A stretch of DNA of 64,000 nt from Thermoanaerobaculia bacterium (GTDB taxonomy: Bacteria; Acidobacteriota; Thermoanaerobaculia; Gp7-AA8): the NCBI GenBank assembly GCA_041671505.1, contig JBAZBK010000009.1, positions 1-64,000 on the forward strand, written 5' to 3'. The position numbers and the translations under genes were made by a program. Below are positions 1 to 37,045 of the stretch, in pieces; position 1 is the first letter of the stretch, and every line of letters starts with the position of its first letter. The notes under the pieces are model-generated. The model made no database searches. It had not been told where the DNA came from and was given only the letters and a program-made list of their open reading frames with translations.

Positions 1-1314
1 GATGTTGCCGGAGCCCGAAGCAGTGCAGGTTCCGCCACCCGCGCCGACGCAGGTCCAGGTGGCGGTTAGGGAAGCCGGGAACGTGTCCGCAACGGTGGAA
101 CCCGAGGCGTTGCTCGGCCCCGCGTTCGACGCGGTGATCGTGTAGGTCACCGAGCCGCCCGCGGTAGCCGACGTCACCCCGTCGGTCTTGGTAATTCCGA
201 GGTTGGCCGTTGGTGTCAACGTGTCGGTGTCGGTTGCGCTGTTGTTGCCCGGCGTCGGGTCGGTGGCTGCGCCGGTCACCGTCGCCGTATTGGAGAGCGT
301 GCCGGTGGCCGAGGCCGCAATGTTGCAGGAGGCGGTGTAGGTGACCGAGCCGCCACTCGGCAGGGTGACGGAGTCGTTGATGTTGCCGGAGCCCGACGCC
401 GTGCAGGTTCCGCCGCCCGCGCCGACGCAGGTCCAGGTGGCGGTTAGGGAAGCCGGGAAGGTGTCCGCCACCGTCGCCGTGGTACTCGACGGCCCTGCGT
501 TCGACGCCGTGATGGTGTAGGTCGTGCTGCCGCCCGGCGTCGCAGTCGTCACGCCGTCGGTCTTGGTGATCGCGAGGTCCGCGGCTGGTGCAGCACTGAT
601 GTTCATTGCGATATGAATCAGCGCCACGCCGTTCGTCGTGGTCCAACTCGTCGGGACCGACGCGGCGCCGGGGCTGGTACTCGTCCGGTAGTAGGCGAAT
701 CCCGTTGAATTCAGAGTGAGTGTTCCGACATTGTGAACGACCGTCTGGCCGGCCCCCGGCGTGACGGTGTTCGTCGGCGTGATGGAATTCGTGAACGTGT
801 CGAAAACATCGAACACCAGATCTCCCGCCGCGCTCACGACGTTCAGCGTTGAAGCCGAAGGTGCCGTCGTGTTGTCGACCGCCTGGACATTGCTGATCGG
901 CGCGGCCTGACTCACGCCGGAAAACGCGGCTGCCGCAATGAATGACGAGTTGTTGGGCGTCGTGCCGGTGCTGACGACCGTGATGGTCTGTGTCGTACTG
1001 CTCGCGCTGCTTCCCAGGCTCAGGGTGAAGACCGAATCGACCGCCGCCCCGTCGTTGTGTTCGGCACGCTGGGTCAGCGAGGACGCTCCGAAGCTGACGG
1101 TCGAGACATCCGTGGCGTCATCGTCCGAAGCGACGACGAGGAGAATCCGATCGTTTCCAGCCGGCACCGTGAAGGACAGCGTATTGGTATTGGTGGCGAA
1201 CGTCGGGGCGCCGATCGCGCTGACCGCGGCTTCTGCCTGCGATGCGAGTACCAGGGCAGATGAAACGAGGAACATCGCAAGAAAGAAGAACCTTCGATCG
1301 CGATTGCTGTTCAT
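1..1314 (-). CDS. Secreted DUF11 (conserved repeat domain) surface protein, partial. The start codon is at 1312-1314 and the 3' end runs off the window.
   Basis: Reverse-strand translation from ATG 1314 gives MNSNRDRRFFFLAMFLVSSALVLASQAEA, a signal peptide. This is followed by two or more DUF11 units of the form ITKTDGVT..YTITASNAGPS..ADTFPASLTATWTCVGAGGGTCTASGSGNI. A 375-nt intragenic tandem repeat (1-375 versus 376-750, about 90% identical) and high GC3 support coding. The six-frame track does not list it because it is open at the window edge. Confidence 0.7.
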   Translation of the reverse strand, partial: MNSNRDRRFFFLAMFLVSSALVLASQAEAAVSAIGAPTFATNTNTLSFTVPAGNDRILLVVASDDDATDVSTVSFGASSLTQRAEHNDGAAVDSVFTLSLGSSASSTTQTITVVSTGTTPNNSSFIAAAAFSGVSQAAPISNVQAVDNTTAPSASTLNVVSAAGDLVFDVFDTFTNSITPTNTVTPGAGQTVVHNVGTLTLNSTGFAYYRTSTSPGAASVPTSWTTTNGVALIHIAMNISAAPAADLAITKTDGVTTATPGGSTTYTITASNAGPSSTTATVADTFPASLTATWTCVGAGGGTCTASGSGNINDSVTLPSGGSVTYTASCNIAASATGTLSNTATVTGAATDPTPGNNSATDTDTLTPTANLGITKTDGVTSATAGGSVTYTITASNAGPSNASGSTVADTFPASLTATWTCVGAGGGTCTASGSGNI

Positions 1315-1895
1315 GCTCACTCCTGAGTTGTTGGTGTCTCAAAAGGCCGATCTTCTTCGGTCACTCCGTGCAAGGCTAATGCAATTGGTCGAGGAGAGGG
1401 GGAAGCATCTCGCGCTCTTCGCGGCGAAATGCCAGCTGAGGCAGCTGCGTGGCCACGCGTGACAAGAACTCCAATTCGTCGATCCGTTCGACGTCATCCT
1501 TGGCGTCATCCACCTCATCCCCACGCGAGCCAGGGCGAAGGCGCGGAGCAGACGATCGATCCCGCGTTGCGGGGCATCAAGAAAGCCAGCGATGCCAGGC
1601 GCGGCGCCGCGGACGAATCTCTGAAGCAACGCGCCGAGGAAAAGAGCCCGGAATCGCGGTGAGCTCGCCCTGAAGCCCCCTTCGGCTCGTCCGATCCGGC
1701 AACCGAGCCGGAGATCGAAGCCGCGGACCCTCGGCGCGTCGGGTCCACCTTCCCTGGTTCCTTCGCCTGTTTCCCTAATCCGCAAACCTGCGTTTTTTGT
1801 GACCGAGGTCATCATTCCCCCCCGAATCTAACCGTATGTTCAGCGTGCCGGGATCGGGCGCGCGACATCGTGCAGCCCGGCAGATCTCTCCGAAC

Positions 1896-4184
1896 ATGAG
1901 TCGACTACGACGGGAGCCGATGCAGAGCCGCCCTGGAGGTTTGCTTGTCGCTGCGCTGCTCGCCATCGCACCGGCTGCGTTTGGAGCTGGCGAGGAGCGC
2001 GTCCCGCGGGAGGAGATGGCAAAACTCCAGCACGCGAGCCAGGACACGCGCGAAGTCCGGCTCGAGCACTTCCCGCTCGACGGAAGATCCGAGACGCTCG
2101 TGCTGGAAGAGTTCGACGTTCTGGCGCCTAACGCCGTGATCGAGAGGTTCGACGACGAGTTGAAGCCCTCCCGCGTCAAGCCGTCTCCGATGCGCCAGTT
2201 TCGCGGATACGTCGACGGCGAGCCCGACTCCCTCGTCTACCTCTCGACCGGTCCTCACGCCGACGGCGTGATCGTCAGTCGCGATCGCAAGTACATCGTG
2301 AAGCAGCGACGCGGGCGTGGAGGGAATGACGACTTCGTCGTCGAAGAGGTCCCTCTTCTCGACGAGCTGGCCGCGGCCGATGACGGCTTTCGGTGCGAAG
2401 CGATCAACGGTCAGGCCGATCCGATCGACGGCTTTCTGCCGCGCTCGCTCACCGCCAACGCGACGCCGATGGCTGTGCCGCCGTGGCCATCTGCGACCGC
2501 GACTTCGGTTCTGAACCTCGCGATCTCCACCGACAGCGCTCTCTACGCGAACTTCAGCAGCAACGTCGTTTCGGTCGAGACCTACGTTCGCAATCTTGTC
2601 GGCGCCGCGTCGGTGATCTACAAGCGCGACCTTCGAACCGAGTTGCGCATCGTCTATCTGCAGCTCTCGCAGGCTTCCGATCCCTGGACCATCAACCCCG
2701 GCACCTCCGGGACCTGGAACGGCTCGGCGGTTACCTATGCAACGGCGCATGCTCTCGCCGAGTTCGGCGACTACTGGCACAACTCTCCTCCCTCGAATGT
2801 CGCCCGCTCGGGCGCCGTGCTTGTCAGTGGGCAGAGCCAGACCGCGGGTGTCGCCTGGATCAATACGATCTGCGCTGCCGACTTCCCATGCGCGGGTGGA
2901 AACTGCAACAACCCGGTCTACGACGGTCACTACGGAGGCGCTTATGCATACTGCGGCGGCGTCGGAACCACGTCGGCCGAGAGAACCGTCCCGAATCCCG
3001 ACTCCAACGCGGGGGGAGCGAACCCGTACCAGATCAACACGACGAGCTACTGGGGGCTCCTGCAGTTCTCGCACGAGCTCGGTCACGTTGTCAGGTCGAA
3101 ACATACGCACTGCATCCAGCTCACCGCGAACGAGCAGGCGCAGTACGGGGTTACGCGCAGCTTCGTCGACGTCTGCTACAGCAGCGCGACGAGCGGCTGC
3201 TACTCCGGCACGACGAGCGTTCCCTCCGAGAAGGGGACCATCATGAGCTACTGCCACATACTCTCGGGAGGTGCGACTAACACTCGCTGGCTCTTCGGCA
3301 AAGCAAACGAACCGAGTGAAGTCGTCACGAACACGATGCGCGCGGCGCTCGATGCCAAAACGCCGTCAGGGCTATCGGTCATCACGGCGCCTTCGAGTGT
3401 GACCGCCGGCGCGTCGAACATCGCGTCGGTGACCGCGACCGCAGGGCTCACCTTCGACTGGACCATCACCAACGGTACGTTCGCGGGCGGCGGGACCACG
3501 GCGACGGGTGCGTCAGTCACCTTCGTCGGCGCGACGTCTCCAGCCACGCTCCGCGTCTACGCCACCAACTCGCAGGGCTGCGCCATAGCCGACTACAAGA
3601 GCGTGACCGTAGGCCCGGGCGTCGCAGCGCCGACGAACGTCGTCGCGACGGCGACGGGTGCGACGTCGATCGGTGTCAGCTGGACGTCGGTGGCCGGCGC
3701 TGTGTCGTACCAGATCGACCGCCGTACCGGAGCGATCTGGAGCCAGATCGGAACGTCGGGCGTGAACTCCTACAACGACGCGACTGCCGTCGCGAATACC
3801 GCGTACCTCTACCGCGTCCGCGCCGTCGACGGCAGCGCGAACGTGTCGGGTAACAGCAACGTCGATCTGGCCACCGCGATCGTCTTCACCGACGCGTCGC
3901 TCGGCAGCGGCACGACGGCCGTCAGGGCGGTTCACTTTGCCGAGCTGAGAATCGCCGCAAACGCTGTCCGGACCCTCGCCGCGCTCACGCTGTCCTCGTT
4001 CACCGACCCGGCGCTCTCCTCGGCCGTTACGATCAAAGGAACGCATCTGACGGAGCTCAGGAGCGCGGTAGACCCGGCCCGAAGCGCGCTTGGACTTGGC
4101 GCCGCTGGCTATTCCGACGGAGCTCCGGTTGGGGTGGCGATCAAGGCGGCTCATCTCGACGAGCTCCGCAGCGCCGTCCGCTAG
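1896..4184 (+). CDS. Secreted zinc metalloprotease (HEXXH, metzincin/M43-like), paralog A, with a C-terminal FN3 domain plus HxxELR triple repeat.
   Basis: ATG at 1896 or 1920 precedes the signal peptide MQSRPGGLLVAALLAIAPAAFGAGEE. The motif HELGHVVRSKHTHC is followed by GTIMSYC, a Met-turn-like segment. Then come an FN3-like segment (SIGVSWTSVAGAVSYQIDRR...LYRVRAVDGS) and the C-terminal repeats VHFAELRIAANAVR / THLTELRSAVDPAR / AHLDELRSAVR. The protein is paralogous to the 4455..6770 product. Confidence 0.75.
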   Translation: MSRLRREPMQSRPGGLLVAALLAIAPAAFGAGEERVPREEMAKLQHASQDTREVRLEHFPLDGRSETLVLEEFDVLAPNAVIERFDDELKPSRVKPSPMRQFRGYVDGEPDSLVYLSTGPHADGVIVSRDRKYIVKQRRGRGGNDDFVVEEVPLLDELAAADDGFRCEAINGQADPIDGFLPRSLTANATPMAVPPWPSATATSVLNLAISTDSALYANFSSNVVSVETYVRNLVGAASVIYKRDLRTELRIVYLQLSQASDPWTINPGTSGTWNGSAVTYATAHALAEFGDYWHNSPPSNVARSGAVLVSGQSQTAGVAWINTICAADFPCAGGNCNNPVYDGHYGGAYAYCGGVGTTSAERTVPNPDSNAGGANPYQINTTSYWGLLQFSHELGHVVRSKHTHCIQLTANEQAQYGVTRSFVDVCYSSATSGCYSGTTSVPSEKGTIMSYCHILSGGATNTRWLFGKANEPSEVVTNTMRAALDAKTPSGLSVITAPSSVTAGASNIASVTATAGLTFDWTITNGTFAGGGTTATGASVTFVGATSPATLRVYATNSQGCAIADYKSVTVGPGVAAPTNVVATATGATSIGVSWTSVAGAVSYQIDRRTGAIWSQIGTSGVNSYNDATAVANTAYLYRVRAVDGSANVSGNSNVDLATAIVFTDASLGSGTTAVRAVHFAELRIAANAVRTLAALTLSSFTDPALSSAVTIKGTHLTELRSAVDPARSALGLGAAGYSDGAPVGVAIKAAHLDELRSAVR

Positions 4185-4454
4185 GGCGTCGGGACGAGGG
4201 CGATTCACGCGGGAGAAGCGCTGTCGTGGTTTTGAGCGCTCGTCGTGAGGGAAGGCCGGTCGATCTTGCCGGCGGCGCGCGGATGAGAGACGAAGAACCC
4301 CCGTCAGCGAGGGTGCGTGTTGGGCCGAGGAGCGTTCCTGCAGGACGCCGCCACCGTTGGATGGCATTTCCAGGCCATCGTCGGCGCTATACTTTTGTTA
4401 TCTCCAACCAGAGTCTCCCGGGTTGCCTCGTCAGCCCCGGATCCGGAGTCTGCT

Positions 4455-6770
4455 ATGACCGCCGTGAAACGCTACGCATCCTGGTTGCCCCTCACCGTCT
4501 CAACTCTGTTGCTCGTGACTGCAACTGCTTCTGCCTCCGAGGTCACGAAGATCAACGACGAAGCGCTGGCTCCGCTTCGAGGCTCGCTCGTGACGAAGCG
4601 AGTCACCCTCGATGCGTTACCTCTCAAGGAAGGACAGCGTCCGGTCATCGACCTCGAAGAGTTTCAGGTCTGGGCTCCAGGGGGCAAGGTGGTCATTCAT
4701 GGAGAAGACGGGAAGGTCACCGTACAGGCTCCGACACCGTTGCGATTCTTCCGGGGATTGGTTAACGGTGATCCCGAGTCGTTCGCGTACTTCTCGGTCG
4801 ATCGGGCCGGGCACGTATACGGCCTGGTGGCCACGCGCGAGCACAGGTACGCGATCACCGCGCAGCGGCGTCCTCGTGCGGGCGTGACGCCGCGCACTCG
4901 GCCGAACGAGGCGAGTGAGGAACTCTTCGACCACTTCGTCACCGAAGCCACGCCGGCCGACGAGTTTGGTGTCGAACAAGGCTGGACCTGCGATACCGAC
5001 AAGTACTCTCTTACTGCTGACTTTCTCAATGGAGACGCGCTGCGTGCGCGCTCGGGGCCCGCAGGGCCGGAGCCAGCCGCCCTTACGGGAACCCAGACGT
5101 ACGGCATCACGGTGGAGGTGGAGACCGATTTCGAGCTCTACACGGCCGCGGGGAGCAATTCGACGACGGTGCAGAACTACGTCACGAACCTGACGGGTGC
5201 CGTCTCGACGATCTACAACCGCGATCTCAAGACCAACGTCACGCAGAGCACGGTCAACATCTACACGACATCCAGTGATCCCTGGGCAGCTGTGACGGCT
5301 TCAGCCGGGCTGATCGAGCTTGGAGATTATTATCACTCGTCGAAGACCCGAACGACGTCTGCTGTAACTTTGCTCAGCGGCAAGAACACGAACAGCGGAA
5401 TCGCCTGGGAGGCCGTGATCTGCGCAAATGATTTGGACCAAGGGGTTTGGGCTGGTCCTTATGCGTGGTGCGGGAGTGTGTTTGGGACGGGAACCATCCC
5501 GGATCCGAACTCCATCCAGAATGGCGTTCAATACGGTATGCCAAGCGGCTTTCAAAACTACTGGCCACTCACGGAATATGCTCACGAATTGGGCCACAAT
5601 ATGGCTGGCCATCACACGCATTGCGTGGCGATCAGCGACGCAGAGCGAATCGCATCGGGCTTCAGCGATGGCAGTCCCGCCAACAGCACATCGAACTTCG
5701 TCGACCACTGCTATGCAGCTGAAGGGGCTGGCTGTTTCAGCGGTACCAGCTACGTAGCCGGCTCGCAAACCACGTTCAAGGGCACGATCATGAGTTACTG
5801 CCACAACGTGTTCAGTGGCGGCTTTCCGCAGAGTCGATTCATCTTTGGCGTCGCCGCCGAACCGAGCCACCACGAGCTCGACGACTACATGCTGCGAGCA
5901 AGTGGACCACTGACGGGTCTAGGCACCAACATCGTTTCGGGCACGACGGCGACGCTCTCGTCGATCACCGCTCCGGGCTCCGTCGGCGGCAACTCCACGG
6001 GAAACGTCGCCTCCGTGACCAACGTAGGTGGCCAGACCTACTCGTGGTCGATCACCGGGGGATCGATCACGGGGGGCGGATCCACGAATTCGGTCACCTT
6101 CTCGGCGGGCGCGTCGGGAAGCGTCGTGCTGACGGTGAACGCGGTGAACTCGACGAGATGTTCGCTCCGCGACAGCGTAACTATTCCGATCAGCTCCATC
6201 AACGCTCCCACCGGAGTCGTCGCCACAGCAACCACGACGACGAACGTCGTTTTGAGCTGGAACATCGTCGTCGGCGCGACGAACTACAAGGTCCTCCGCA
6301 GCAGCAACGGCTCGACCTACGGCCAGGTCGGCAACCCTTCGGAAAACTCGTTCAACGATCCGACGGCGCTCGCGAACACCGCCTATCTCTACAAGGTCCG
6401 CGCGAACGACGGCTCGAGCGACTCGGGCGACAGCAACATCGATCTCGCCACGACGGTGATCTTCACCGACCCGTCGCTCACCGTCGGCACCACGCAGGTG
6501 AAGGCGGTCCACATCACGCAGCTCCGGACCGCCGTCAACGCGGTGCGAACGCTCGCGTCGTTAGGCGCAGGCAGCTACACCGATCCGACAGTGACCGCGA
6601 CGTCGACGACGATCAAGCGACTCCACGTCACCGACCTTCGAACCGCGCTCGACGCGGCCCGCTCGGCGCTGGCGCTATCGGCGGTCAGCTACACCGACCC
6701 GACCATCACGGCAAGCAGCACGCTGGTCAAGGCAGCGCACGTAAACGATCTTCGCGGAGGGGTGCAGTAG
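4455..6770 (+). CDS. Secreted zinc metalloprotease (HEXXH, metzincin/M43-like), paralog B, with a C-terminal FN3 domain plus HxxELR triple repeat.
   Basis: ATG 4455 precedes the signal peptide MTAVKRYASWLPLTVSTLLLVTATASASE. It contains HELGHNMAGHHTHC and GTIMSYCHNVF, then an FN3-like segment (VVLSWNIVVGATNYKVLRSSNG...LYKVRANDGS) and the repeats VHITQLRTAVNAVR / LHVTDLRTALDAAR / AHVNDLRGGVQ. The N-terminal propeptide-like region is shared with paralog A (FRGYVDGEPDS versus FFRGLVNGDPES). Confidence 0.75.
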   Translation: MTAVKRYASWLPLTVSTLLLVTATASASEVTKINDEALAPLRGSLVTKRVTLDALPLKEGQRPVIDLEEFQVWAPGGKVVIHGEDGKVTVQAPTPLRFFRGLVNGDPESFAYFSVDRAGHVYGLVATREHRYAITAQRRPRAGVTPRTRPNEASEELFDHFVTEATPADEFGVEQGWTCDTDKYSLTADFLNGDALRARSGPAGPEPAALTGTQTYGITVEVETDFELYTAAGSNSTTVQNYVTNLTGAVSTIYNRDLKTNVTQSTVNIYTTSSDPWAAVTASAGLIELGDYYHSSKTRTTSAVTLLSGKNTNSGIAWEAVICANDLDQGVWAGPYAWCGSVFGTGTIPDPNSIQNGVQYGMPSGFQNYWPLTEYAHELGHNMAGHHTHCVAISDAERIASGFSDGSPANSTSNFVDHCYAAEGAGCFSGTSYVAGSQTTFKGTIMSYCHNVFSGGFPQSRFIFGVAAEPSHHELDDYMLRASGPLTGLGTNIVSGTTATLSSITAPGSVGGNSTGNVASVTNVGGQTYSWSITGGSITGGGSTNSVTFSAGASGSVVLTVNAVNSTRCSLRDSVTIPISSINAPTGVVATATTTTNVVLSWNIVVGATNYKVLRSSNGSTYGQVGNPSENSFNDPTALANTAYLYKVRANDGSSDSGDSNIDLATTVIFTDPSLTVGTTQVKAVHITQLRTAVNAVRTLASLGAGSYTDPTVTATSTTIKRLHVTDLRTALDAARSALALSAVSYTDPTITASSTLVKAAHVNDLRGGVQ

Positions 6771-6856
6771 CGAGCGTGCACGCAAATGCGCTCCGGAGGG
6801 GCACGGGCGGCGCGATCCGTGCGCGAGGTTCAGCCTTCTACCGCCGCCGCGTCCCC

Positions 6857-9800
6857 TCACTTCACCGCGTCACGTAGTTCCTGGATGTGCACACCCTTCA
6901 TGGGCGTCCCGGGCGTAAGCGTCGGATCCGTGAACGTCTGCGTCGGCATCCCGAGCGCGCTGCATGCCTCGTTCAGCCGCGCGCGCAACTCCGTGATGTG
7001 AATCGCCTTGATCGGAACACCCACGAGCGTCGGGTCGGTCCACGTCACGGAGGCGAGCCCTGCGGCGTTGCGCATTCTGCCGACCGCATTCCGCAGTTCG
7101 ACGAGATGGACTCCCCTGGTGACGGTCGTTCCCGCCACGACAGGATCGTCTGTAAAGGAAAGGCTCGACAGCACGGAATCGATGACGCTGAACGGACCGG
7201 TACTGGAGTAGTCAAGGTGGTAGGCCCTGACCCGGTATCGATAAAGCTCGGTCGACGCGAGGTTGTAGTTGGTGTAGCTCGTGGAATTGACCCGGGCCAG
7301 AGTGGCGAAGCTTCCGTTCGCCGTGCTTCGCGCGATCTCGTAACCGCTCGCGTTTGGAATGGCACTCCAGGTCAGCAGTGCGGAGTTCGGGCCGCTGGCA
7401 CGCGCGATGAAGTTCGCCGGGCGGGTGAGGACGACGGAGGTCATGCTGTCGGTGTTGTTGTCCGGACTCGTGTCTCCCCCTCCCGAGACCGTGGCGACAG
7501 AGGTGGCGGGCGAAGGACAGTTCTCTGCGACACTCACGGCTGCGGACAGCGATGGATAGTACGTTGATCCGCCGAGTGAGTCGCTGCGCGTGCAGGTCGC
7601 CGAGGCCGTGTTGCAGCTCCACCCTGTTCCGCTGAGACCCGTGAGCGTAAGCCCGGGTGCGACGGAAAGACTGAAGGTCACGCTGCCCGACGTCGGCTCA
7701 TCTCCGGCGTTACGTACTTCGGCGTAGAAGGTGACATTCGTCGAGCCGGCTGAGAGGGTAGGGAAGTACGACATCGAAACCACCAGGTCCTGATGCCGCA
7801 GAATGCCCGTGTAGTCGCTCCACGAGTTATTGGTCGAGTTGGCGTCGCCCCCTCCCGACAGCTTCGCGACGTTGGTCACGCTCCACGACGTAGTATTCGA
7901 CACGTCCACCGTCAGCGTGATCGACGGGAACTGGGCTCCGGGAGCGAGGATGTCCCCGCGAGTGCAGGTCGTGCTGGCGACATCGCACGTCCAGCCGCTG
8001 CCCGACATGGCCGTCGCGGTCAGGGCGTCAGGCAGCACATCCGTCACCGTGACGGCGCCGCGCGACGGCCGGGTGCCGGCGTTTCTTGCAACGATCGTGT
8101 ACGTCGCGCCGGTCTGGCCGCCATGGAGCGATCCCGTATGGCTCTTCGTGACGGCGAGGTCGATGCAACTTCCAAGGTATGTGTAGGCGTACCCGTCGGA
8201 GCCCATGACGATGTCCTGACTGCCGTCACGGTCGAGATCGGCCACCACCAGACCGCCAGACCCATAGCTGTTCGGCAGCGTCGTATAAGGTAGAAACGAG
8301 CCGTCGCCATTGCCCTGGAGATAACCTGATTTGAGTACGATGTCAGCGTCTCCGTCAGAGTTCATGTCTTCGATGACGACCTGGAACGGGGAGTAGGACG
8401 GGGCTGGCCACAAGGTGGCTGGCGTCAGCGTTCCATCCCCGCGGCCGAGCATCACACTGACCAGCGATTCGTAGTAATTCGAGGTGCTGCACGACGCGAC
8501 GAGGTCGAGGTCGCCGTCGTCATCGAGGTCGCTGACGGCAAGCCGTTGGGGCCGCGCGCCGACGCTGTACACCACTGGAGCGTGGAACGTCCCGTCGCCG
8601 ATTCCTCGCAGCAGCTGCAACGTATCGCCCAGGGCGCTCGAGACGGCGAGGTCGATGATCCGGTCTCCGTCAAAGTCTCCGCTGACGATGTCAGACGGGT
8701 TGACCAGAGTCTCGACGTCGAATGGTGCGAACATCGAGCCGTCGCCGGTACCGATGAAGAGCGACAGTTTGGCGCCCGAACCGGGAATGACGGCGACATC
8801 GGGGAAGCCGTCGCCGTTGAAGTCGCCGATGGCCATGCGCTGCGGGTCGGAGATGGCTTGAGTGCCGCGCAGTACGAAGCTACCGTCACCCGCGCCGATC
8901 AACTCGGACAACGAATCGCTCGAGAAGCTGAGGGCCAGGAGATCGAGCACGCTGTCGCGGTTGAGATCGACCGCGGTCAGGGAGTTGAAGCTGACGGCAT
9001 CAAAGGACTTCACCGCGGGCTCGAAGTCGCCTGTGCCTCGGCCGATCAGGACCGCGAGGCCTTCGTACGAGGGCGTGCCCACGATGTCGGGAATCGTGTC
9101 GCCGTTGAAGTCGCCGACCGCGATGGTGCCCGTCGAGCCTCCGCCGAGCAAAAATGCGACACCCGAGCCGTATTGGTGGCAGGCCGTGCTGCTCCAGACG
9201 GCGGTGCGGTTGGCCGCGCTGCTGTTCGCGAGATTGAGCTCGCCCCCGCCGCTCACCGAGGCGAGGTTCAGGACTTCGACAGGTGCACTGGCGGCGACAT
9301 TCACAGTCAGCGAGATCGGCGGGTAGCTCGCGCCCGAGCCGAGCGCATCGCTCCGGCTGCAGCTCAACGCTCCAAGGTTGCAGTTCCATCCCGAACCGCC
9401 GATCGCGGTCGCGGTCAGGCCGGTCGAAAGAGCGTCGGTGACGGTGACCGCTCCGCTCGTGGCGGCTCCGCCTGCGTTCCTGACGTCGATGCTGTACTTC
9501 TGTCCGGTTTCGCCCTGGGCGAAGGGATTTGGCCGCGTGATCTCAATGACGAGGTCCGGATCCTGCGTCACCGTCACGACGTCGGCGGTGCTGTCGTTCG
9601 TCTTGTCGATCTCGCCTCCACCCGTCACCGTCGCGCCGTTGGTGAGCGTCGCCGGAGCCGCGCTCGCGACGCTTACCGTCAATGTGATGGGCGGGTAGCT
9701 CGCTCCCGCGCCCAGGCTGTCGCTCCGCAGGCATGTCAGCGTGTTCAGCGCGCAGTCCCAGCCGGTTCCCGCGATGCTCGTCGCCCAGAGCCCTCGCGGG

Positions 9801-12800
9801 AGCGCGTCACTGATGCCGACGAGACCGAATGAGGCTGATCCGCCGGCGTTGGAGACAGTGAGAGTAAACGGCTTGCCGATGTCGCCCTGGCGAAACGGAT
9901 CGGCGTGCGATGACGTGACGACGAGGTCGGGCGCGGGGCAGTTGTTGATCAGGACGCTGACCGCGTTGCTGGTTTCGCTCGAGACCGCGAGCTCGTCCCG
10001 TCCGTCGCCGTCGAGGTCGGCGGCTGTGATGCCCACAGGGTGGACGAGCGGCCCGACGACCGAGGCGACGAAGGTTCCGTCCCCGTTGCCGCGCAGGATC
10101 GTCACGTCCTCGGAGTCGGCGCCCACGACGGCGAGATCGGGGATGCCGTCGTCGTTGACGTCGGTCGCGACGAGCGACGACGGATTCGTGCCGGTCGCGA
10201 CGAACGTTGCGCCCGCGAACGTCCCGGCGATGTTTCCGAGCAGGATTGCGACGTCGCCCGAGCCGCTGTTGGCGGTGGCGAGATCCAGCACTCCGTCGCG
10301 GTTGACGTCGGCGGCGATCAGCGCGACGGGCGCGGTGCCCGTGGCGACGGTCGATCCCGGCAGGAACGTTGCGTCGCCGTTTCCGCGAAGCAAAGTGATG
10401 TCGTTCGATCCGAAGTTCGCGACCGCGAGATCGAGGATCCCGTCGCGATCGAAGTCGGCCGCGATGACCGACCTGGGGGAGTCGCCGCAGGCGACGCTCG
10501 TGGCGGCGCCGAAGCTTCCCGAGCCGCTGCCGAGGAGTATCGAGATGTCGTCGGAGCCGGAGTTCGCGACGGCGACGTCGAGCCTCCCGTCGCGGTTGAA
10601 GTCGCCAATCGCCGAGGAGCGCGGCGCGCTTCCCGTGGCGTAGGCGACGGCGGGATCGAAGCTGCCGTCGGCGTTTCCGAGGAGGATCGACACGTCGTTC
10701 GAGGTCTGGTTCGCGACGGCGAGATCGGACGCGCCGTCGCCGTCGAGGTCGGCGACCTGGACGCTCCGCGGCACGGTGCCGGCGGCGTAGCTCGTCGGGG
10801 GCTGGAGCGTTCCGTCGCCTCGCCCGAAAGCGATCGAGACGTTGTTCGAACCGCGGTTCGCGGTGACGACGTCGGTCGCTCCGTCGGCATTGAAGTCGCC
10901 GGTCGCGATGCCGTCAGGAATACTGCCGACTGCATACATCGCTCCGGACTCGAGCGAGCCGCAGTTCATCTTGCATGCGCCCAAGTTCCGAAGGATCGTC
11001 AGAGAGGTGGCGCCCGCGGGCGCGACGATGAGGTCGGCCGAACCGTTGCGATCGACGTCGGCTGCGACGAGCTGCGACGGAAGCCATCCCGTCTCCCAGA
11101 CGCTCTGCGAGCCGAACGATCCGTCTGCCTGACCTAACAGCACGGTCACGGTGGAATCGTCTTCGCTCGAGACCGCGAGATCGGGGTGGCCGTCGTCGTC
11201 GACGTCGACGATCGCGACGGACGACGGGCCCTTGCCGACGGGGTAGGCGACCGCGGGACGGAACGTTCCGTCGCCGTTGCCGGTCAGTACCGACACGTCG
11301 TTCGAGCCGTTGCCGGTCGCCGCGAGGTCGAGGATGCCGTCGCCATCGACGTCTCCGAGCGCCACCGACGAGGTTCTCGTGCCTGCCGGATACGAGACGC
11401 CAGGCTGGAAGGTGCCATTGCCGTTTCCGAGAAGCACGACGAGCTGGTTCGCGTTGAACGCCGCGACGGCGAGGTCGGTTCTGCCGTCGTGGTTGAAATC
11501 TCCGGCCGCGAGCCAGTGCGGGCCGGAGGCGACGGCAACGCTGACGGGAGCGGCGAAGGAACCGTCACCGAGACCGCGAAGGATCGAGACGCTCGACGAA
11601 CCGTTGTTCGCGACGGCGAGGTCGACTTGGCCGTCCGCGTCGAAGTCGCCGGTTGCGATTGCGAACGGATTGGAGCCGCTCTGGAACTGCATGGCGGCGG
11701 AGAAGCTCCCGTTGCCGAGGCCGAGGTGCACCGACACCTGGCTTCCTCCCGCGTTCGCGATCGCGAGATCGAGCTTGCCGTCCCGGTTGAAATCGGCCGT
11801 CGCCACGGCCACGGGGGCGCTGCCGCCGACGAGGTTGGAGCCGATGCTGAACCCTCCGTCGTTGCGCCCGAGCAGGATCAGCGTCGTCGCGCTGTTCGCG
11901 GAGACGGAGGCGATGTCCATCGTGCCGTTCCGATCGAAATCTCCGAGCGCGATGCCGGTCGCCTCTCCGTACCAGCTCGGCGAGTAGTAACGGATGAATT
12001 TGGGACAGACCGTCACCGGCGGAGACTTCACCACGGTGACGGGGAGAAGCACGGTATGCCCCGCCTGACTGCTCCCCGCGCCGATCATCGCCGTCGCGCT
12101 GCTGCCCGCGTAGTACCCCGCGCTTGCGCTCGCGGTCAGGGTGAGCGTCGACGACGTCGTGGCGGGGTTCGGCGTGAACGATGCGGTCACGTAGGGCGGA
12201 AGGCTGGACGCCGAGAGTTGCACCGGCTCGCTGAAGCCTCCGGTCGGCGCGATCGCGATCTCGACGCTCACTGATTGACCGGCGATGACGGTCGCGACGG
12301 CGGGGTTCGTCGAGAGCGAAAAGTCGGCGCCTGCCGGGACGCCGAGCACCTTCGCGGCGTTGAGCCTGCCTCCGGTGATCGTCTTGCCGGCGAGGGCGGG
12401 GATCGGATCGACTCCGGAGAGAATCGCCTGCTTCACCTCGGCCGTGGTGAGGGTCGGGCTCTTCGAAAGCAGGAGCGCGGCGACGCCGGAAACGTGAGGC
12501 GCCGCCATCGACGTCCCGCTCAGGGACGTGTAGCCGCCGTAGGAATAGGTCGAGACGATGTTGGCTCCCGGGGCTCCGAGGTGGACGGTGTTGGGGCCGT
12601 AATTCGAAAACGCCGCGAGCCGGTCGCGATAGTCGGTCGCCGCGACCGTGATCACGTTAGGCGACGCGTAGCCCGCCGGATAGGTCGGCCAGGATTCGAT
12701 GTTGATGCTGTCGTTGCCCGCGGATGCGACGAAGAGGATGTCGTGCTCGTTCGCCTTGAGGATCTCGTCGAGCAGCGCCTTCGAGAACGCCTCTCCGCCC

Positions 12801-13651
12801 CAGCTGTTGTTGAGGACGCGAACGTTCACGCCTTCGATCTTCGCCTGGATCGCGAAGTCGATCGCGGCGATCGCGTCGGCGATCCAGCCGCCGTCGGCGT
12901 TCATGAACTTGAGCGGCATGATCGTCGTGGTCCAGTTCACGCCGGTCACCCCGAGTGCGTTGTTGCCGACCGCTCCGATCGTCCCGGCGACATGCGTCCC
13001 GTGGAAGCTGTCGAACGGTTTCGGGTCGCAGGTCCGGGTGATGGCGTCGAATCCGTGCGTGCCGGCGGCGCAGTTCGGGTCTCCGACGCCTCCGGGGTTG
13101 GACCAGATGTTCGCCGCCAGGTCGGGATGCGTGTAGTCGACGCCCGTGTCGACGACGCCGACGACGATGCCGGCCGAGCCGGTCGTCACGTCCCAGGCTG
13201 CTTCGGCGTTGATGTCGATCCCTGCGATGCCAGTCTCGTAGTAGCCGACGAGTTGACCCGTGTTGCGGAGCGCCCAGAGCTCGGAGTACTTCGTGTCGGC
13301 TGGAACCGCATTGCGGCGGATGATGTAGTTAGGCTCGACGTAGACGACGTTCGGGTTGTGCTCGAGCGCCCTGACGAGTGCCTCGGTGTTCTTCGAGCGC
13401 GAGCGGAATCGCCTGATCGTTCCCGACGTGACCTCCGCGAGCTTGTCGTCCTTGTCGATGTCGGCGCCTTGATGCGCAGCCGCGACTGCGGACGCCGGAG
13501 TCCCCGGCCGGAACTTCACGATCACCTCGCCAGGGGCCGATTCACCGGTCGGTTTGGCCGCCGCGGCGAGGGCCGTCCAGGGCATGAGGACGAGCCCGAT
13601 GACGGAGAAACGAACCAGTGCCTTCAAGGTGTGGCGCATCGCGATTTTCAA
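6857..13651 (-). CDS. Giant secreted S8 subtilisin-family serine protease (2264 aa) with FG-GAP/VCBS beta-propeller repeats, DUF11 repeats, an FN3 domain and the C-terminal HxxELR triple repeat.
   Basis: TTG start at 13651 with a GGAG Shine-Dalgarno sequence, and an alternative ATG at 13639. The signal peptide is MRHTLKALVRFSVIGLVLMPWTALAAAA. The S8 catalytic triad motifs are VGVVDTGVDYTHPDL (Asp), HGTHVAGTIGA (His) and GTSMAAPHVSGVAALL (Ser). There are many FG-GAP-type units such as GDFDADGQVDLAVAN and ADFNRDGKLDLAIAN. DUF11 units follow, for example LAVTKSHTG..YTIVARNAG..VTDVLPDALTATAMSGSGWTCDV. The C-terminus reads GVHLVELRNAV / AIHITELRARL / GVHIQELRDAVK. Confidence 0.85.
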   Translation of the reverse strand: MKIAMRHTLKALVRFSVIGLVLMPWTALAAAAKPTGESAPGEVIVKFRPGTPASAVAAAHQGADIDKDDKLAEVTSGTIRRFRSRSKNTEALVRALEHNPNVVYVEPNYIIRRNAVPADTKYSELWALRNTGQLVGYYETGIAGIDINAEAAWDVTTGSAGIVVGVVDTGVDYTHPDLAANIWSNPGGVGDPNCAAGTHGFDAITRTCDPKPFDSFHGTHVAGTIGAVGNNALGVTGVNWTTTIMPLKFMNADGGWIADAIAAIDFAIQAKIEGVNVRVLNNSWGGEAFSKALLDEILKANEHDILFVASAGNDSINIESWPTYPAGYASPNVITVAATDYRDRLAAFSNYGPNTVHLGAPGANIVSTYSYGGYTSLSGTSMAAPHVSGVAALLLSKSPTLTTAEVKQAILSGVDPIPALAGKTITGGRLNAAKVLGVPAGADFSLSTNPAVATVIAGQSVSVEIAIAPTGGFSEPVQLSASSLPPYVTASFTPNPATTSSTLTLTASASAGYYAGSSATAMIGAGSSQAGHTVLLPVTVVKSPPVTVCPKFIRYYSPSWYGEATGIALGDFDRNGTMDIASVSANSATTLILLGRNDGGFSIGSNLVGGSAPVAVATADFNRDGKLDLAIANAGGSQVSVHLGLGNGSFSAAMQFQSGSNPFAIATGDFDADGQVDLAVANNGSSSVSILRGLGDGSFAAPVSVAVASGPHWLAAGDFNHDGRTDLAVAAFNANQLVVLLGNGNGTFQPGVSYPAGTRTSSVALGDVDGDGILDLAATGNGSNDVSVLTGNGDGTFRPAVAYPVGKGPSSVAIVDVDDDGHPDLAVSSEDDSTVTVLLGQADGSFGSQSVWETGWLPSQLVAADVDRNGSADLIVAPAGATSLTILRNLGACKMNCGSLESGAMYAVGSIPDGIATGDFNADGATDVVTANRGSNNVSIAFGRGDGTLQPPTSYAAGTVPRSVQVADLDGDGASDLAVANQTSNDVSILLGNADGSFDPAVAYATGSAPRSSAIGDFNRDGRLDVAVANSGSDDISILLGSGSGSFGAATSVACGDSPRSVIAADFDRDGILDLAVANFGSNDITLLRGNGDATFLPGSTVATGTAPVALIAADVNRDGVLDLATANSGSGDVAILLGNIAGTFAGATFVATGTNPSSLVATDVNDDGIPDLAVVGADSEDVTILRGNGDGTFVASVVGPLVHPVGITAADLDGDGRDELAVSSETSNAVSVLINNCPAPDLVVTSSHADPFRQGDIGKPFTLTVSNAGGSASFGLVGISDALPRGLWATSIAGTGWDCALNTLTCLRSDSLGAGASYPPITLTVSVASAAPATLTNGATVTGGGEIDKTNDSTADVVTVTQDPDLVIEITRPNPFAQGETGQKYSIDVRNAGGAATSGAVTVTDALSTGLTATAIGGSGWNCNLGALSCSRSDALGSGASYPPISLTVNVAASAPVEVLNLASVSGGGELNLANSSAANRTAVWSSTACHQYGSGVAFLLGGGSTGTIAVGDFNGDTIPDIVGTPSYEGLAVLIGRGTGDFEPAVKSFDAVSFNSLTAVDLNRDSVLDLLALSFSSDSLSELIGAGDGSFVLRGTQAISDPQRMAIGDFNGDGFPDVAVIPGSGAKLSLFIGTGDGSMFAPFDVETLVNPSDIVSGDFDGDRIIDLAVSSALGDTLQLLRGIGDGTFHAPVVYSVGARPQRLAVSDLDDDGDLDLVASCSTSNYYESLVSVMLGRGDGTLTPATLWPAPSYSPFQVVIEDMNSDGDADIVLKSGYLQGNGDGSFLPYTTLPNSYGSGGLVVADLDRDGSQDIVMGSDGYAYTYLGSCIDLAVTKSHTGSLHGGQTGATYTIVARNAGTRPSRGAVTVTDVLPDALTATAMSGSGWTCDVASTTCTRGDILAPGAQFPSITLTVDVSNTTSWSVTNVAKLSGGGDANSTNNSWSDYTGILRHQDLVVSMSYFPTLSAGSTNVTFYAEVRNAGDEPTSGSVTFSLSVAPGLTLTGLSGTGWSCNTASATCTRSDSLGGSTYYPSLSAAVSVAENCPSPATSVATVSGGGDTSPDNNTDSMTSVVLTRPANFIARASGPNSALLTWSAIPNASGYEIARSTANGSFATLARVNSTSYTNYNLASTELYRYRVRAYHLDYSSTGPFSVIDSVLSSLSFTDDPVVAGTTVTRGVHLVELRNAVGRMRNAAGLASVTWTDPTLVGVPIKAIHITELRARLNEACSALGMPTQTFTDPTLTPGTPMKGVHIQELRDAVK

Positions 13652-13939
13652 CTTTCTCCGGCGTGGAAGCAGTTCCGGATTCCGTAGTCATTCGGCCCGG
13701 AGCTCACGCGTAAAGGAACTGGATCGCGCCTGCTGGTTCGAAACGGGATCCTGCGGGGGTCGGGGCCGCCGACATTACAGACGAACTGCGCGCCAAATTC
13801 CGGTGACGCGAGTCACCTGGGAGTGAAGCAACGCCTGCGGCCGGGCTGGCTGGAGACGACGCCCGCGATCGGGGTGTCCGTACGCGCGGCCCGAGGCGCT
13901 GACTTCGTTGAGCTTCTCGCTGCTGGTCACGACGATCGT

Positions 13940-14011
13940 TCCGGGCGAACGCTCGTCGGCGCTCGGCACCCACTCCGCCACGTCCTGGTACTTCGCGGAG
14001 GGGTGCAGTAG
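13940..14011 (+). pseudogene. Remnant of the 3' end of a third metalloprotease paralog (C-terminal HxxxLRGGVQ plus stop).
   Basis: The sequence cttcgcggaggggtgcagtag is identical over 21 nt to the last codons of the 4455..6770 gene. Upstream translation RSGRTLVGARHPLRHVLVLRGGVQ aligns with TASSTLVKAAHVNDLRGGVQ. No intact ORF lies upstream. Confidence 0.3.
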
Positions 14012-14071: not shown

Positions 14072-16417
14072 CTACGCCTTCTCGTCCTCCGTGATCGTCA
14101 GGGTTGTTGCGGCGGGCGTGGAGAACGGCTTTCCCGTCAGTTTTTCCAGTAGGGCGACGCCGAAGAATCCGTCCATCACGCCACCCTTATCGCTCCCGCC
14201 GCCGATGACGAGGTTCTCCGGAATCAGTTTCAGGTGATTGGCTGCGATCTTTTCGACGACGCGGATCTGACCGAAGATCTCCTTGCTCATCGCCGCGACT
14301 TCCAGCTTGTAGGCCTCGGCGGTCGACTTGCCTTTGGCGAGGATGACTCCCGCTTCCGCGGTTCCGACCTTCGTCGTCGCTTCGGCATTGGCTTCCGCGT
14401 TCACCTTGGTGGCCGCGGCGTTTGCGCGTGCCGTGATCTCGACCGCTTCCGCGGCGCCCGACGCGTGAAGAATCGCCGCCTGCTTCGAGCCTTCGGCTGC
14501 CTTGACCGTGCCTTCCGCGATGTTCTTCTGGATCTCGACGTTTCGCTCCGACTCGACGACCTTGACCTGCATCGCGGCCTGGGCCTTCGCATTCTCGAGC
14601 GTCCGCCGCTCGTCCTGCGCTTCCTTCTGCATCGCGAAGGTCTTCTTCTCCTGCTCGGCGATCTGGCGGTCGGTGACCGTCTTCGTCAGCTCGGCCGGTA
14701 GGACGACGTCGGCGATCAACGTGTCCTTCGAATCGATGTGATGGACCTTGAGCACGGAGTCGATGTGCGCCTTTGCCGTCGCCTGCAATTCCTTGCGCTG
14801 CGTGTAGAGGTCGAGCGCCTTGATGTACTGGGCGGCATTGCGGAAGTGCGAGCTGATCGCCGGCTCGAGGACCTGCGAGATCATGTTCTTCACGGAACCG
14901 AGGTTCGCGATCACCTTCGGCGCGTTCTTGACCGGGATGTGGATGATCACGCTGACGTCCATGTTGACGTTGAACGCGTCGGCGGTGCGGAGCGTGATCG
15001 TCTTCAGGTTCGAGTCGAGCTCGTGCGCGCTCGATCGATTGTCGGCCCAGTTGAGCAGGATCTGCGTCGTCGGCACGATGTCGACCTTGCAGATCTTCGT
15101 GTTGAGCGGGTGTTTGCCCGGCTGCAGCGGATCGGCCCAGATGCCCTTGCTCCCGTTGGCGACGATCTTGGCGTTCACGGCGTCGTCGGTCGTGTCCGCT
15201 CCTTCCGGGCCGACGTAGCTCGTGACGACGCCGCAGTACCCGATGTCGACGCGAATCATGTCGACCTTCTCGATCGTCGCGAACCAGGGATTGATCGCGT
15301 AGTTGCCGGCGCGGAGCACCGGGATCTGGAGACCCTTCTGTCCGCCTCCCTTGAGGAAGGCGTCGGGGTCCTGGAAGTTGTTGTGCACGCCGAGTGGCAG
15401 CTCCTCCGCGGCGATCTTCGACGGATCGACGATCGGCTTGCCTTCGTTGATCGTTACGATGCCGACCTGGTCGGCGTCGATGTGCGTCCAGTCGACGATG
15501 TCGATGACCTTGAAGAGCGCCGGATTGAGGCGATAGCGCCCCGGCATGAGCACGTCGAGCTGACGTCCCTTTTCTCCACCGCACCTGATGAAGGCCTCAC
15601 CATCGAAGAAGTTCTTGTGGCCGTCCACCTTGGCGGCGAGGAGGCGCCCCTCGGGGATCCTCGCTCCATCGGTGGCTTCCACGAGGCCGACCTTGCCGCC
15701 GGGGATTTCGGTCATCGGCCGCTTCTCGACTTTGAAGAGAATCGTATTGACCCGGTAGAGGCCGGGAACGAGGAAGAAGAGTTGAGGCCCCTTCTGGCCT
15801 CCGTTCTTGATGAAGGCCTCGGCGTTCTGGAAGCTGTCGCACTCAACGGGAGAGCCGAAGTTGCCCCCTTCACGCGACACCGGCTTTCCGGCGATCGATT
15901 CGACGTAGCCGACCTCGTTGTCTTCGATCATGACGGCCGGGACGATGGCGACCTCGAACAGGTGCGGGTTGATCTTGTACTCGCCGTCGGGGAGGATCGC
16001 GAGCTGCGGTCCCTTTTCGCCGCCGCCGCTCAGAAACTTCTCCCCGTCCTGGAAGAGATCGCAGACGATCGGCCTGGCCATGATGGCGCCCGATGGCATC
16101 GGCGCGCCGGTGATCGCCCGCACGACTCCGACGTGGTTAGGCTTGATGACCAGGAACGGATGCTTCTTGGTCTTGTAGATGAACGGGGCGAGAAGGTGGA
16201 AGCCGGGCCCGAGTACGCGCGCCTGCACGCCGACCTCGTTGCGGAGCGCGACGGTGCGCCCGTCCGGCATCTGCCTGCCGAACCAGCGCCGCTCCACGGT
16301 GATGATCTGATCGCCCTTTGCGATGGTGAACGAATTGAGGAGCATCACGAGCACGACGATCGCCAGGAGTATCTGGGCGACGCCTCCGGTCAGGAACGGC
16401 ACGACGGATTCCAGCAT
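14072..16417 (-). CDS. Flotillin/SPFH (band-7, YqiK-like) membrane protein with four N-terminal tandem repeats of roughly 70 aa.
   Basis: ATG 16417 carries an AAAGGGGAAG Shine-Dalgarno sequence. There is an N-terminal transmembrane helix (VAQILLAIVVLVMLLN). Four repeats follow with the form F(Q/F)DxEAFxxGGxKGxQxxxLxPGxYxxNPxxFxV. The C-terminal half is SPFH/flotillin-like with a coiled-coil Ala/Glu/Lys-rich region (AEQEKKTFAMQKEAQDERRTLENAKAQAAMQVKV...). Confidence 0.8.
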   Translation of the reverse strand: MLESVVPFLTGGVAQILLAIVVLVMLLNSFTIAKGDQIITVERRWFGRQMPDGRTVALRNEVGVQARVLGPGFHLLAPFIYKTKKHPFLVIKPNHVGVVRAITGAPMPSGAIMARPIVCDLFQDGEKFLSGGGEKGPQLAILPDGEYKINPHLFEVAIVPAVMIEDNEVGYVESIAGKPVSREGGNFGSPVECDSFQNAEAFIKNGGQKGPQLFFLVPGLYRVNTILFKVEKRPMTEIPGGKVGLVEATDGARIPEGRLLAAKVDGHKNFFDGEAFIRCGGEKGRQLDVLMPGRYRLNPALFKVIDIVDWTHIDADQVGIVTINEGKPIVDPSKIAAEELPLGVHNNFQDPDAFLKGGGQKGLQIPVLRAGNYAINPWFATIEKVDMIRVDIGYCGVVTSYVGPEGADTTDDAVNAKIVANGSKGIWADPLQPGKHPLNTKICKVDIVPTTQILLNWADNRSSAHELDSNLKTITLRTADAFNVNMDVSVIIHIPVKNAPKVIANLGSVKNMISQVLEPAISSHFRNAAQYIKALDLYTQRKELQATAKAHIDSVLKVHHIDSKDTLIADVVLPAELTKTVTDRQIAEQEKKTFAMQKEAQDERRTLENAKAQAAMQVKVVESERNVEIQKNIAEGTVKAAEGSKQAAILHASGAAEAVEITARANAAATKVNAEANAEATTKVGTAEAGVILAKGKSTAEAYKLEVAAMSKEIFGQIRVVEKIAANHLKLIPENLVIGGGSDKGGVMDGFFGVALLEKLTGKPFSTPAATTLTITEDEKA

Positions 16418-21335: not shown

Positions 21336-21827
21336 TCTCGACGACCGGACGCTCACGCGTCCGGCTACACATCTCTCGCATCGCTGTCGCGACGCTTGAG
21401 GCCTCACGGCCTCCGTGCGGCGTGTCCTGAGTCAAATTCAAATCGACACCGCACAGGATCCGCTCTAACTTTCACGAATCAGGCCACTTCCGAACTAGAG
21501 ATCCGAATTGAACCGGACAGCAGCGATCCGTACGTTGGGCGGGCGGAGCTCTCTGAGCGCCCGCTCGCTCCGCGAGAGTCGCAACGCTCGCCGCGGCGCC
21601 ACAAAGGGCTATCGGACATCACGCGAGTGATCGCCGCCACGTTTCCTCCTCGCCCCAGGCGATATGCTCTCCCTGCGGTCGTCCGCGCGCCCCGGAATGG
21701 TTCCGGCACGAGCAGTCCGGCGTCAGGGAGGACCTTTACAGCACGGACTCGACACGGCCGGACGCCGCGCGGAGAGGGGCGGGACGATGGTTCCCCCTGG
21801 CCGCGACGCCGGCAGCGGAAGAAAAGC

Positions 21828-23012: not shown

Positions 23013-23035
23013 GCTGGAAGGAAAGGAACACCATC

Positions 23036-30643: not shown

Positions 30644-30683
30644 TTTGACGGGAGTTCTTGCTGAAAATCAGACTGTCGCCTAA

Positions 30684-33303: not shown

Positions 33304-33306
33304 CCA

Positions 33307-37026: not shown

Positions 37027-37045
37027 GGCTCGTTCGTCCTTGTCG

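Follow-up and report, generated by a model that had tools for sequence, protein, structure and literature searches.

Dockerin and S-layer homology (SLH) modules hold enzymes, without covalent bonds, to a scaffold or the cell surface. Dockerins are duplicated 22-aa Ca-binding EF-hand-like repeats (PF00404), and SLH regions are built of three tandem PF00395 motifs of approximately 55 amino acids (aa) each, which bear a TRAE motif and are arranged as a pseudo-trimer around a helical core. At the C-terminus, classical sorting signals such as LPXTG, PEP-CTERM, GlyGly-CTERM and MYXO-CTERM join a short motif to a hydrophobic transmembrane helix and a basic tail, and the C-terminal domain (CTD) of type IX secretion system (T9SS) cargo is a beta-sandwich of approximately 80 aa found strictly at the C-terminus. 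Among phage-derived assemblies, each VgrG trimer carries one PAAR protein, and rhs genes are found downstream of vgrG (PMC10433429). The mosaic adhesive trimer (MAT) proteins of Bdellovibrio are trimeric beta-helix adhesins that resemble phage tail fibres (PMC10769870). Here we analyse a tail shared by three proteases encoded side by side in a 64 kb stretch of a Thermoanaerobaculia metagenome-assembled genome (MAG) from a soil bacterium (contig JBAZBK010000009.1; this stretch is the window, and all genes, features and coordinates refer to it unless another locus is named). We propose that the triple repeat ending this tail, hereafter the module, is an unnamed extracellular domain, widespread in Acidobacteriota and also present in some other soil phyla, that serves neither as a cleaved nor as a membrane-anchoring signal.

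The last approximately 190 residues of all three proteases form a two-domain cassette, in which an FN3-like domain is followed by a module of approximately 100 aa made of three tandem units. Each unit has the consensus [FYW]-T-D-P-x-L-x-x-G-x-T-x-[IV]-K-A-x-H-[ILV]-x-E-L-R-x-A-V-x-x-x-R-x-x-x-G-L and consists of an extended segment ([FYW]TDPxLxxGxTxIKA) and then a helix (HxxELRxAVxxxRxxLGL). Unit lengths are 38/37/24 aa in protease 1, 38/38/26 aa in protease 2 and 38/36/25 aa in the S8 protein. A six-frame motif scan recovered exactly nine in-register units from the window, the remaining motif matches being out of frame or out of context. The FN3 assignment draws on Pfam fn3 matches to the tails below the gathering score (E 1.2e-4 to 6.9e-3), on FN3 chains retrieved from PDB sequences by the tail profile (E 2e-10) and on Foldseek probabilities of 1.0 to many FN3 structures. 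A preliminary description, made from the sequence alone, had held that one FN3-plus-repeat tail is common to the three enzymes and that each protein ends right after the third repeat motif. Both points are borne out, with the stop codon 4 residues past the last HxxELR in all three proteases.

The same description was also right about the catalytic regions, where two paralogous HEXXH metalloproteases accompany an unrelated S8 subtilase. Both M12 proteins match Reprolysin_5 above its cut-off (E 3e-13 and 7.8e-9) and contain the zinc motif HELGH; they are 38% identical overall and approximately 53% identical within the tail. The S8 protein matches Peptidase_S8 (E 8.7e-55), displays the triad motifs VVDTGVD, HGTHVAG and GTSMAAPHV, and additionally contains a fervidolysin-type prodomain, 18 FG-GAP_3 stretches and 4 DUF11 stretches. 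Third-position GC is high in all three of these large open reading frames (ORFs). NCBI product names for them are only 'M12 family metallo-peptidase' (the name of MFA6956254) and 'FG-GAP-like repeat-containing protein'.

The resemblance among the three tails is not due to chance, because a profile built from them retrieves a large family. A word-indexed search yielded 685 relatives, the named ones belonging to Thermoanaerobaculia or Acidobacteriota, and an exhaustive hidden Markov model (HMM) search of 1.84 billion representatives yielded 6,624 cluster representatives at E<=1e-3 and 4,790 at E<=1e-10. A genome scan added module loci in Gemmatimonadaceae, Pyrinomonadaceae, Vicinamibacterales, Rokubacteria and Bacteriovoracaceae. 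The tail thus extends far beyond the paralogues of the window and occurs on secreted proteins that are otherwise unrelated. Pfam domains in 62 long carriers include peptidases (Reprolysin 8, S8 4, C25 2) as well as FG-GAP (6), DUF11 (5), Big_3_5 (5), Kelch (3) and RHS (3), together with Invasin_D3, Calx-beta, PKD and Teneurin-NHL. A divergent FN3 domain precedes the module in nearly all long carriers (consensus of alignment A7), and all carriers examined have Sec signal peptides. Judging by this spectrum of carriers, secreted and surface proteins share a portable cassette that is independent of family and not peculiar to a single group of paralogues.

The module usually ends its protein. Of the 263 best-scoring relatives, 252 (96%) have it at the extreme C-terminus, and the chain terminates exactly 4 residues past the last HxxELR in 203 of 258. 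Several other arrangements occur. In the 147-aa protein P0115 the module stands alone behind a signal peptide; in P0191 and L104 an N-terminal FN3 domain and module lie ahead of cadherin or RHS regions; in L010 the module is followed by a Cys-rich tail and in L001 by an extra domain of approximately 165 aa. Furthermore, in the RHS toxins P0127, P0137, P0146, L005, L008 and L101 it is inserted between YD repeats. These non-C-terminal contexts, which comprise RHS loops, N-terminal positions and stand-alone forms, argue for an autonomous binding domain.

Several features recur around the module genes. At some loci two to four module ORFs or fragments lie close together (L019, at 9860-11195 and 14270-14776; L018; L007; L011; L017), some of them short ORFs of FN3 plus module only and some on opposite strands, which suggests that the cassette frequently duplicates and decays. 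A PMT_2 glycosyltransferase gene of the dolichyl-phosphate-mannose-protein mannosyltransferase family directly precedes carriers of approximately 640 aa in five independent locus groups (L060, at 1207-3108; L072; L073; L081; L083/L094), a hint that these Thr/Ser-rich carriers are possibly glycosylated. Secreted proteins combining FN3, ASH/HYDIN-like Ig and InlB B-repeat (Flg_new_2) domains are encoded beside module genes in eight locus groups, mostly immediately downstream (for example, L004 5565-9191, L084 2344-3372, L075 and L083).

The module is modelled as a folded helical domain packed on FN3. AlphaFold2, run on the tail of protease 2 with a 123-sequence alignment, returned a model of FN3 plus module with a mean predicted local distance difference test score (pLDDT) of 95.7 and a predicted template-modelling score (pTM) of 0.91. 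In the 189-residue query seven strands are followed by helices at 102-118, 140-156 and 178-188, and the module modelled alone also has three helices (pLDDT 86, pTM 0.82). Well-defined extended segments of approximately 21 residues join the helices, which are therefore parallel and in a pseudo-threefold arrangement. The parallel helices imply a bundle, and hence the module is predicted to be a single-chain pseudo-trimer. Its third helix is short and normally terminates the protein. The predicted packing between FN3 and module is rigid, with no flexible linker and no hydrophobic anchor. Relative to the His, hydrophobic residues occupy positions +1, +4, +8, +11 and +15, a spacing that would correspond to the a and d positions of a heptad pattern and would place the invariant His and Arg at flanking g and e positions. 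A comparator is the BARA domain of Beclin-1 and Vps30, with three beta-alpha repeats; those repeats are longer, with real beta-sheets, in a eukaryotic, cytosolic and membrane-binding domain, and homology to the module is unsupported.

Comparisons with named domains leave the module without a match. Pfam and NCBIfam scans of the full proteins covered the catalytic and repeat regions and, weakly, FN3, with the last approximately 100 residues unmatched, and the repeat stayed unmatched, with no SLH or dockerin hit, when the tails alone were scanned against Pfam at E<=10. SLH, PEP-CTERM, T9SS CTD, LysM and dockerin gave no match in Pfam or NCBIfam, permissive E-values included, and neither did the T9SS models Por_Secre_tail and TIGR04183. 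This agrees with the preliminary description, which had recognized no named sorting or anchoring domain in the tail. A search for sequence relatives of the repeat in the PDB found none: the 3-sequence profile gave FN3 matches, and a 40-sequence profile of the module alone gave only noise. The domain family is missing from Pfam (2025 copy), NCBIfam release 20 and the PDB, and the searchable literature held no prior account of the domain or of a fibre/RHS pairing in Acidobacteria. Accessory or adaptor modules shared among secreted proteins are a familiar arrangement, and it is in its fold, candidate partner and extracellular setting that this one would be new.

A phage origin of the module was considered and rejected. 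Its helix motif (module residues 18-38; window 6441-6767) has only a weak PHROGs match of 21 residues to phrog_16011, a phage family of unknown function (E 0.002). A tblastn search of 50,697 phage genomes with the module returned nothing, as did a scan of viral_contigs, and a search of viral predicted structures gave nothing significant.

The neighbouring genes point to a candidate partner. Eighty further loci were taken from metagenomes, their ORFs were called, carriers were marked with the module HMM, and all other ORFs were clustered by all-against-all BLASTP. In this unbiased clustering of 100 loci, one of the two most recurrent neighbour families encodes fibre-like proteins. The preliminary description had anticipated a partner that recognizes the tail; a candidate family did emerge from the conserved gene neighbourhood, but it is fibre-like and not sortase-like. 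Fibre proteins of this family have a signal peptide, repeated GNVGIGTxxPxxKLxV motifs and lengths of approximately 290 to 640 aa. Their mature N-terminus is conserved (QWTTNGNNINNTNTGNVGVGT / QWTTNGNNINNTNTGNVGVGTTTP), the middle is variable, and the C-terminal domain of 140 aa (AKYQDVAEWV...EILVLLSLQ, ending at the stop) has a mean column identity of 71% (alignment A9). The repeats match the Bdellovibrio MAT structures 8ond (Bd2133; E 3.7e-4) and 8ol4 (E 0.028) over only the approximately 30-aa capping-loop repeat, and the NCBIfam model Bdello_MAT_N matches the family at E 6.6e-5, below its cut-off. Peptidase_G2 (PF11962) matches 7 of 14 fibre C-terminal domains at E 1.4e-5 to 0.1, one of them with 24.3 bits against a cut-off of 25 over profile positions 32-99 of 228, and some fibre relatives carry precomputed PF11962 hits. 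On this basis the C-terminal domain looks like a divergent Peptidase_G2-like intramolecular-chaperone or autoproteolytic domain, its match falling just below the Pfam threshold.

The linkage between fibre and carrier genes is tight. According to an HMM of the fibre C-terminal domain, the 83 independent loci (776 kb) contain 16 fibre ORFs, 15 of which lie <=1.5 kb from a carrier ORF against an expectation of 33.5% (binomial P ~8e-7), and all 16 share a strand with a carrier. Measured stop to stop, most fibre and carrier ORFs are from a few to approximately 70 nt apart or overlap, in either gene order. The linked carriers include an S8 protease (L001), RHS toxins (L008, L052, L063 and L066), proteins of approximately 712 aa and of 299 aa, and a stand-alone module (L017). 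A reverse search, which started from fibre proteins on long contigs, found a module gene next door in three of four testable loci. In L101 and L104 the fibre gene is followed by an RHS gene with the module, and in L103 a gene for Kelch/glyoxal oxidase, FN3 and module is followed by three tandem fibre genes. The fourth testable locus (L105) has no module gene in the available DNA, and two other fibre loci (L100 and L102) end at contig breaks. The Acidobacteriota MAG GCA_038040525.1, to which L100, L102 and also L101 belong, encodes at least three paralogous fibre proteins, two of whose genes lie <300 nt from contig ends, consistent with assembly having broken in the repetitive RHS genes after them.

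Because module genes often adjoin fibre-like genes, and because the module is not a classical sorting signal, we read it as a docking adaptor that would couple Sec-exported cargo to secreted trimers resembling phage tail fibres, presumably by physical binding. We put the probability of this reading at roughly 45%. The cargo would comprise M12, S8 and C25 peptidases, Kelch/glyoxal oxidases, FG-GAP/DUF11/Ig adhesins and RHS toxins. The module would act as a socket fastening each of these to one end of a fibre trimer, with a single pseudo-threefold module seated coaxially on the threefold axis of one trimer, and the fibre would give each enzyme or toxin targeting to a cell or surface. A broader proposal is more doubtful in our judgement, although possible: Acidobacteriota, and possibly allied soil phyla, would possess a Sec-dependent extracellular system of fibre-guided effectors, in which the helical adaptor caps the fibre and the variable region of the fibre steers proteases, oxidases and RHS toxins.

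The docking arrangement has its closest parallel in PAAR and VgrG. Like PAAR, the module is a small single-chain domain with three repeats and a pseudo-threefold symmetry, here predicted, and is fused to very diverse effectors, Rhs toxins and hydrolases included. Its gene, like that of PAAR, often adjoins and is co-oriented with the gene of a phage-derived beta-helical trimer, here a putative one, and module-bearing rhs genes lie directly downstream of the fibre gene much as rhs genes follow vgrG. On the other hand, the module has no Pfam match to PAAR (PF05488), and three parallel helices are predicted in place of a beta cone. Unlike PAAR and VgrG, both partners have Sec signal peptides, so that assembly would be periplasmic or extracellular and not cytoplasmic, and the neighbourhoods contain no type VI secretion system (T6SS) genes; the binding itself, in our case, is presumed. 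With dockerin and SLH the module shares the form of a short, internally repeated, non-catalytic domain that is usually C-terminal and occurs on many different secreted enzymes. It differs from them in that Pfam gives no match at E<=10, in that its 38-aa unit lacks the pattern of a Ca-binding EF-hand loop, and in that its candidate partner is a tail-fibre-like trimer rather than a cohesin scaffold or a cell-wall polymer. The fibre family, for its part, resembles Bdellovibrio MAT proteins in its signal peptide and its GNVGIGTxxPxxKLxV capping-loop motifs, and phage tail fibres in its putatively chaperone-related C-terminal domain, conserved ends and widely varying length. Unlike MAT proteins, it has no conserved N-terminal domain of approximately 130 aa, its C-terminal domain is G2-like and not S74, its source-named members are Acidobacteriota, and both its trimerization and its self-cleavage are putative.

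Several observations weigh against docking. Of the 29 loci flanked by >=2 kb on each side, only 7 have an adjacent fibre gene, and therefore most carriers, the three of the window included, would use fibres encoded elsewhere, or none. Module loci of Gemmatimonadaceae, Rokubacteria and Bacteriovoracaceae (L002, L004, L009 and L010) contain no fibre gene in the available DNA. The window itself retains only a relic of a fibre gene and no intact linked copy. Adjacency could stem from the co-regulation or co-transfer of surface and attack genes, and the conserved H/E/L/R/D residues may be purely structural. We take most seriously a rival, unlikely all the same, in which a generic non-catalytic module binds a non-protein ligand (an envelope or matrix polysaccharide, or an insoluble substrate) at three equivalent sites in the manner of SLH or beta-trefoil lectins, so retaining or targeting enzymes unaided while fibre genes are merely co-regulated. 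In its favour, an aromatic residue, Asp, His, Glu and Arg are conserved in each of the three equivalent repeats; the module is autonomous in many architectures and also occurs as a stand-alone secreted protein; most carrier loci lack an adjacent fibre gene; and the module is found in some phyla in which no fibre gene was seen close by. Yet we found no sequence or fold resemblance to SLH, LysM, carbohydrate-binding modules or lectins, the heptad analysis would put the hydrophobic residues in the core with Arg and His flanking it, which fits a structural role, and the tight, co-oriented and often overlapping pairing with one specific gene family would be left unexplained. A structural role without any partner, in which domain shuffling would have spread a helical bundle that simply ends and stabilizes the FN3 stalk of large secreted proteins, is scarcely probable. 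The rigid, high-confidence interface predicted between FN3 and module and the compatibility of the conserved residues with such a role speak for it, but it is hard to square with stand-alone secreted modules, with insertions into RHS loops that lack FN3, with the strong conservation of sequence across phyla and with the linkage to a specific fibre family.

The preliminary description itself had favoured a tag for a dedicated sorting, anchoring or secretion system. In its strongest form, this would be a C-terminal signal for an outer-membrane translocon or processing enzyme, removed or attached at export as are the T9SS CTD and the PEP-CTERM tags handled by exosortase. The precisely conserved end at the extreme C-terminus of 96% of the best-scoring relatives, a cargo (M12, S8, C25 and adhesin repeats) like that of the T9SS CTD, and the Sec signal peptides of all carriers examined would suit it. 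We nevertheless consider it distinctly improbable. The module also occurs at N-terminal and internal positions, inside RHS shells and ahead of other domains, and it is predicted to be a folded helical domain and not a beta-sandwich. The proteins end in HxxELRxAV[KRQ] and then the stop, with no hydrophobic stretch, transmembrane helix or basic tail, and with no linker or cleavage motif between FN3 and module; the NCBIfam sorting-domain models matched none of the three proteases. No sortase, exosortase or rhombosortase family recurs among the neighbours of the 83 independent loci, nor do sortase, exosortase or translocon genes recur as neighbours in the 100 loci, where L018 has a lone sortase and L019 a lone exosortase fragment. 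Beside the proteases of the window there is likewise no sorting enzyme, the neighbours being housekeeping genes; the gene contexts of P0097, P0115, P0068 and P0090 are heterogeneous; and we regard the histidine kinases and Ser/Thr kinases that also recur nearby as generic families of high abundance. With neither a membrane helix nor a recurring sortase neighbour, the module is not a classical sorting tag, and its positional variety and anchorless end are better explained by an autonomous binding domain than by a processed signal.

In the window, the trace of a fibre gene lies in the spacer that separates the S8 gene from the SPFH gene upstream of it (Table 1). The relic is 53-58% identical to the Peptidase_G2-like C-terminal domain of the fibre family (E ~1e-11; HMM E 6.5e-11), and it follows that the window once had the order of fibre gene and then S8 carrier that is still intact in L001. 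The preliminary description had seen a degraded fourth copy of the tail at 13940..14011 and had taken it as a sign that the tail is mobile or duplicable. A part of this stands, in that 21 nt (13991..14011) match the end of the tail. The remainder belongs to the opposite strand: since the minus strand matches the fibre C-terminal domain at 53-58%, the region is mainly the relic of another gene, and a reading of plus-strand 13880..14011 as a decayed tail was rejected beyond the 21-nt match, as the minus-strand relic explains the region much better. The case for mobility from a fourth copy thus comes down to those 21 nt and is not upheld. This copy is too long to be a chance match and may mark a rearrangement junction or scar.

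Table 1. Coordinates of the proteases, their tails and the fibre-gene relic in the 64 kb window.
Feature	Position	Strand	Details
M12/reprolysin-like metalloprotease 1	1896..4184	+	Signal peptide, HELGH; alternative starts 1836, 1920; likely start 1896 or 1920; NCBI MFA6956254
FN3-like beta-sandwich, protease 1	3621..3884	+	
Triple-repeat module, protease 1	3885..4181	+	Units 3885-3998, 3999-4109, 4110-4181
M12/reprolysin-like metalloprotease 2	4455..6770	+	Signal peptide, HELGH; ORF from 4317, likely start 4455; NCBI MFA6956255
FN3-like domain, protease 2	6198..6461	+	
Triple-repeat module, protease 2	6462..6767	+	Units 6462-6575, 6576-6689, 6690-6767
S8 subtilase	6857..13639	-	2260 aa from ATG 13639 (likely start); ORF from TTG 13651; NCBI MFA6956256
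Triple-repeat module, S8 protein	6860..7156	-	Units 7043-7156, 6935-7042, 6860-6934
FN3-like domain, S8 protein	7157..7420	-	
Fibre-gene relic, 41 codons (AKYQDVAEWVPSADERSPGTIVV... = AKYQDVAEWVPSADERSPGTIVVTSSEKLNEVSASGRAY)	13877..13999	-	Immediately upstream of the S8 gene
21-nt exact copy of 6750..6770	13991..14011	+	Last 6 codons and stop of M12 gene 2, at the edge of the relic

Few groups of soil bacteria are as abundant as Acidobacteriota, and how they deploy their many secreted hydrolases and RHS toxins is largely obscure. An unnamed domain found in thousands of secreted proteins and genetically coupled to fibre-like proteins offers a testable handle on the targeting of these enzymes and toxins, as well as a marker for secreted effectors in metagenomes. 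Module and fibre are a candidate pair for protein-protein docking, open to direct testing or to reuse in display. They may also represent a further case of bacteria co-opting phage fibre parts, beside the MAT fibres of Bdellovibrio and the spikes of T6SS. Were docking true, it would amount to an extracellular, non-contractile counterpart of effector loading by PAAR and VgrG, new to description. Even if docking is wrong, the family merits an entry in the profile databases, given its confident model and the lack of a close solved relative.

The rest of the window contributes several minor observations. The protease cluster is surrounded by SPFH, ApbE, DUF3570, thioredoxin, AckA and Pta genes, with a MacB/HlyD exporter at a distance. 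The acetate kinase ORF (20826-25213 for this region) has a 336-aa N-terminal extension and overlaps the Pta ORF, which contains AAA_26, DRTGG and PTA_PTB domains, by approximately 700 nt; the real starts probably lie later. The MacB-type ABC exporter cluster (35806-40631) encodes two FtsX/MacB_PCD permeases, an ABC ATPase and an HlyD-family adaptor and adjoins a gene for a secreted DUF11/IgGFc_binding protein. Approximately 20 kb separate it from the protease cluster, and nothing was found to link it to the tail. A direct repeat of 261 nt occurs at 33047-33307 and 35803-36063 (96% identical), with a third copy of 85 nt at 30680-30764 (82-84% identical). At 35803 the repeat forms the 3' end of a MacB/FtsX permease gene, and the other two copies adjoin large secreted-protein ORFs at 30832-32943 (no Pfam match) and 33807-35573 (IgGFc_binding and DUF11). 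Apparently, duplication of the permease 3' end accompanied the insertion or duplication of the two secreted-protein genes.

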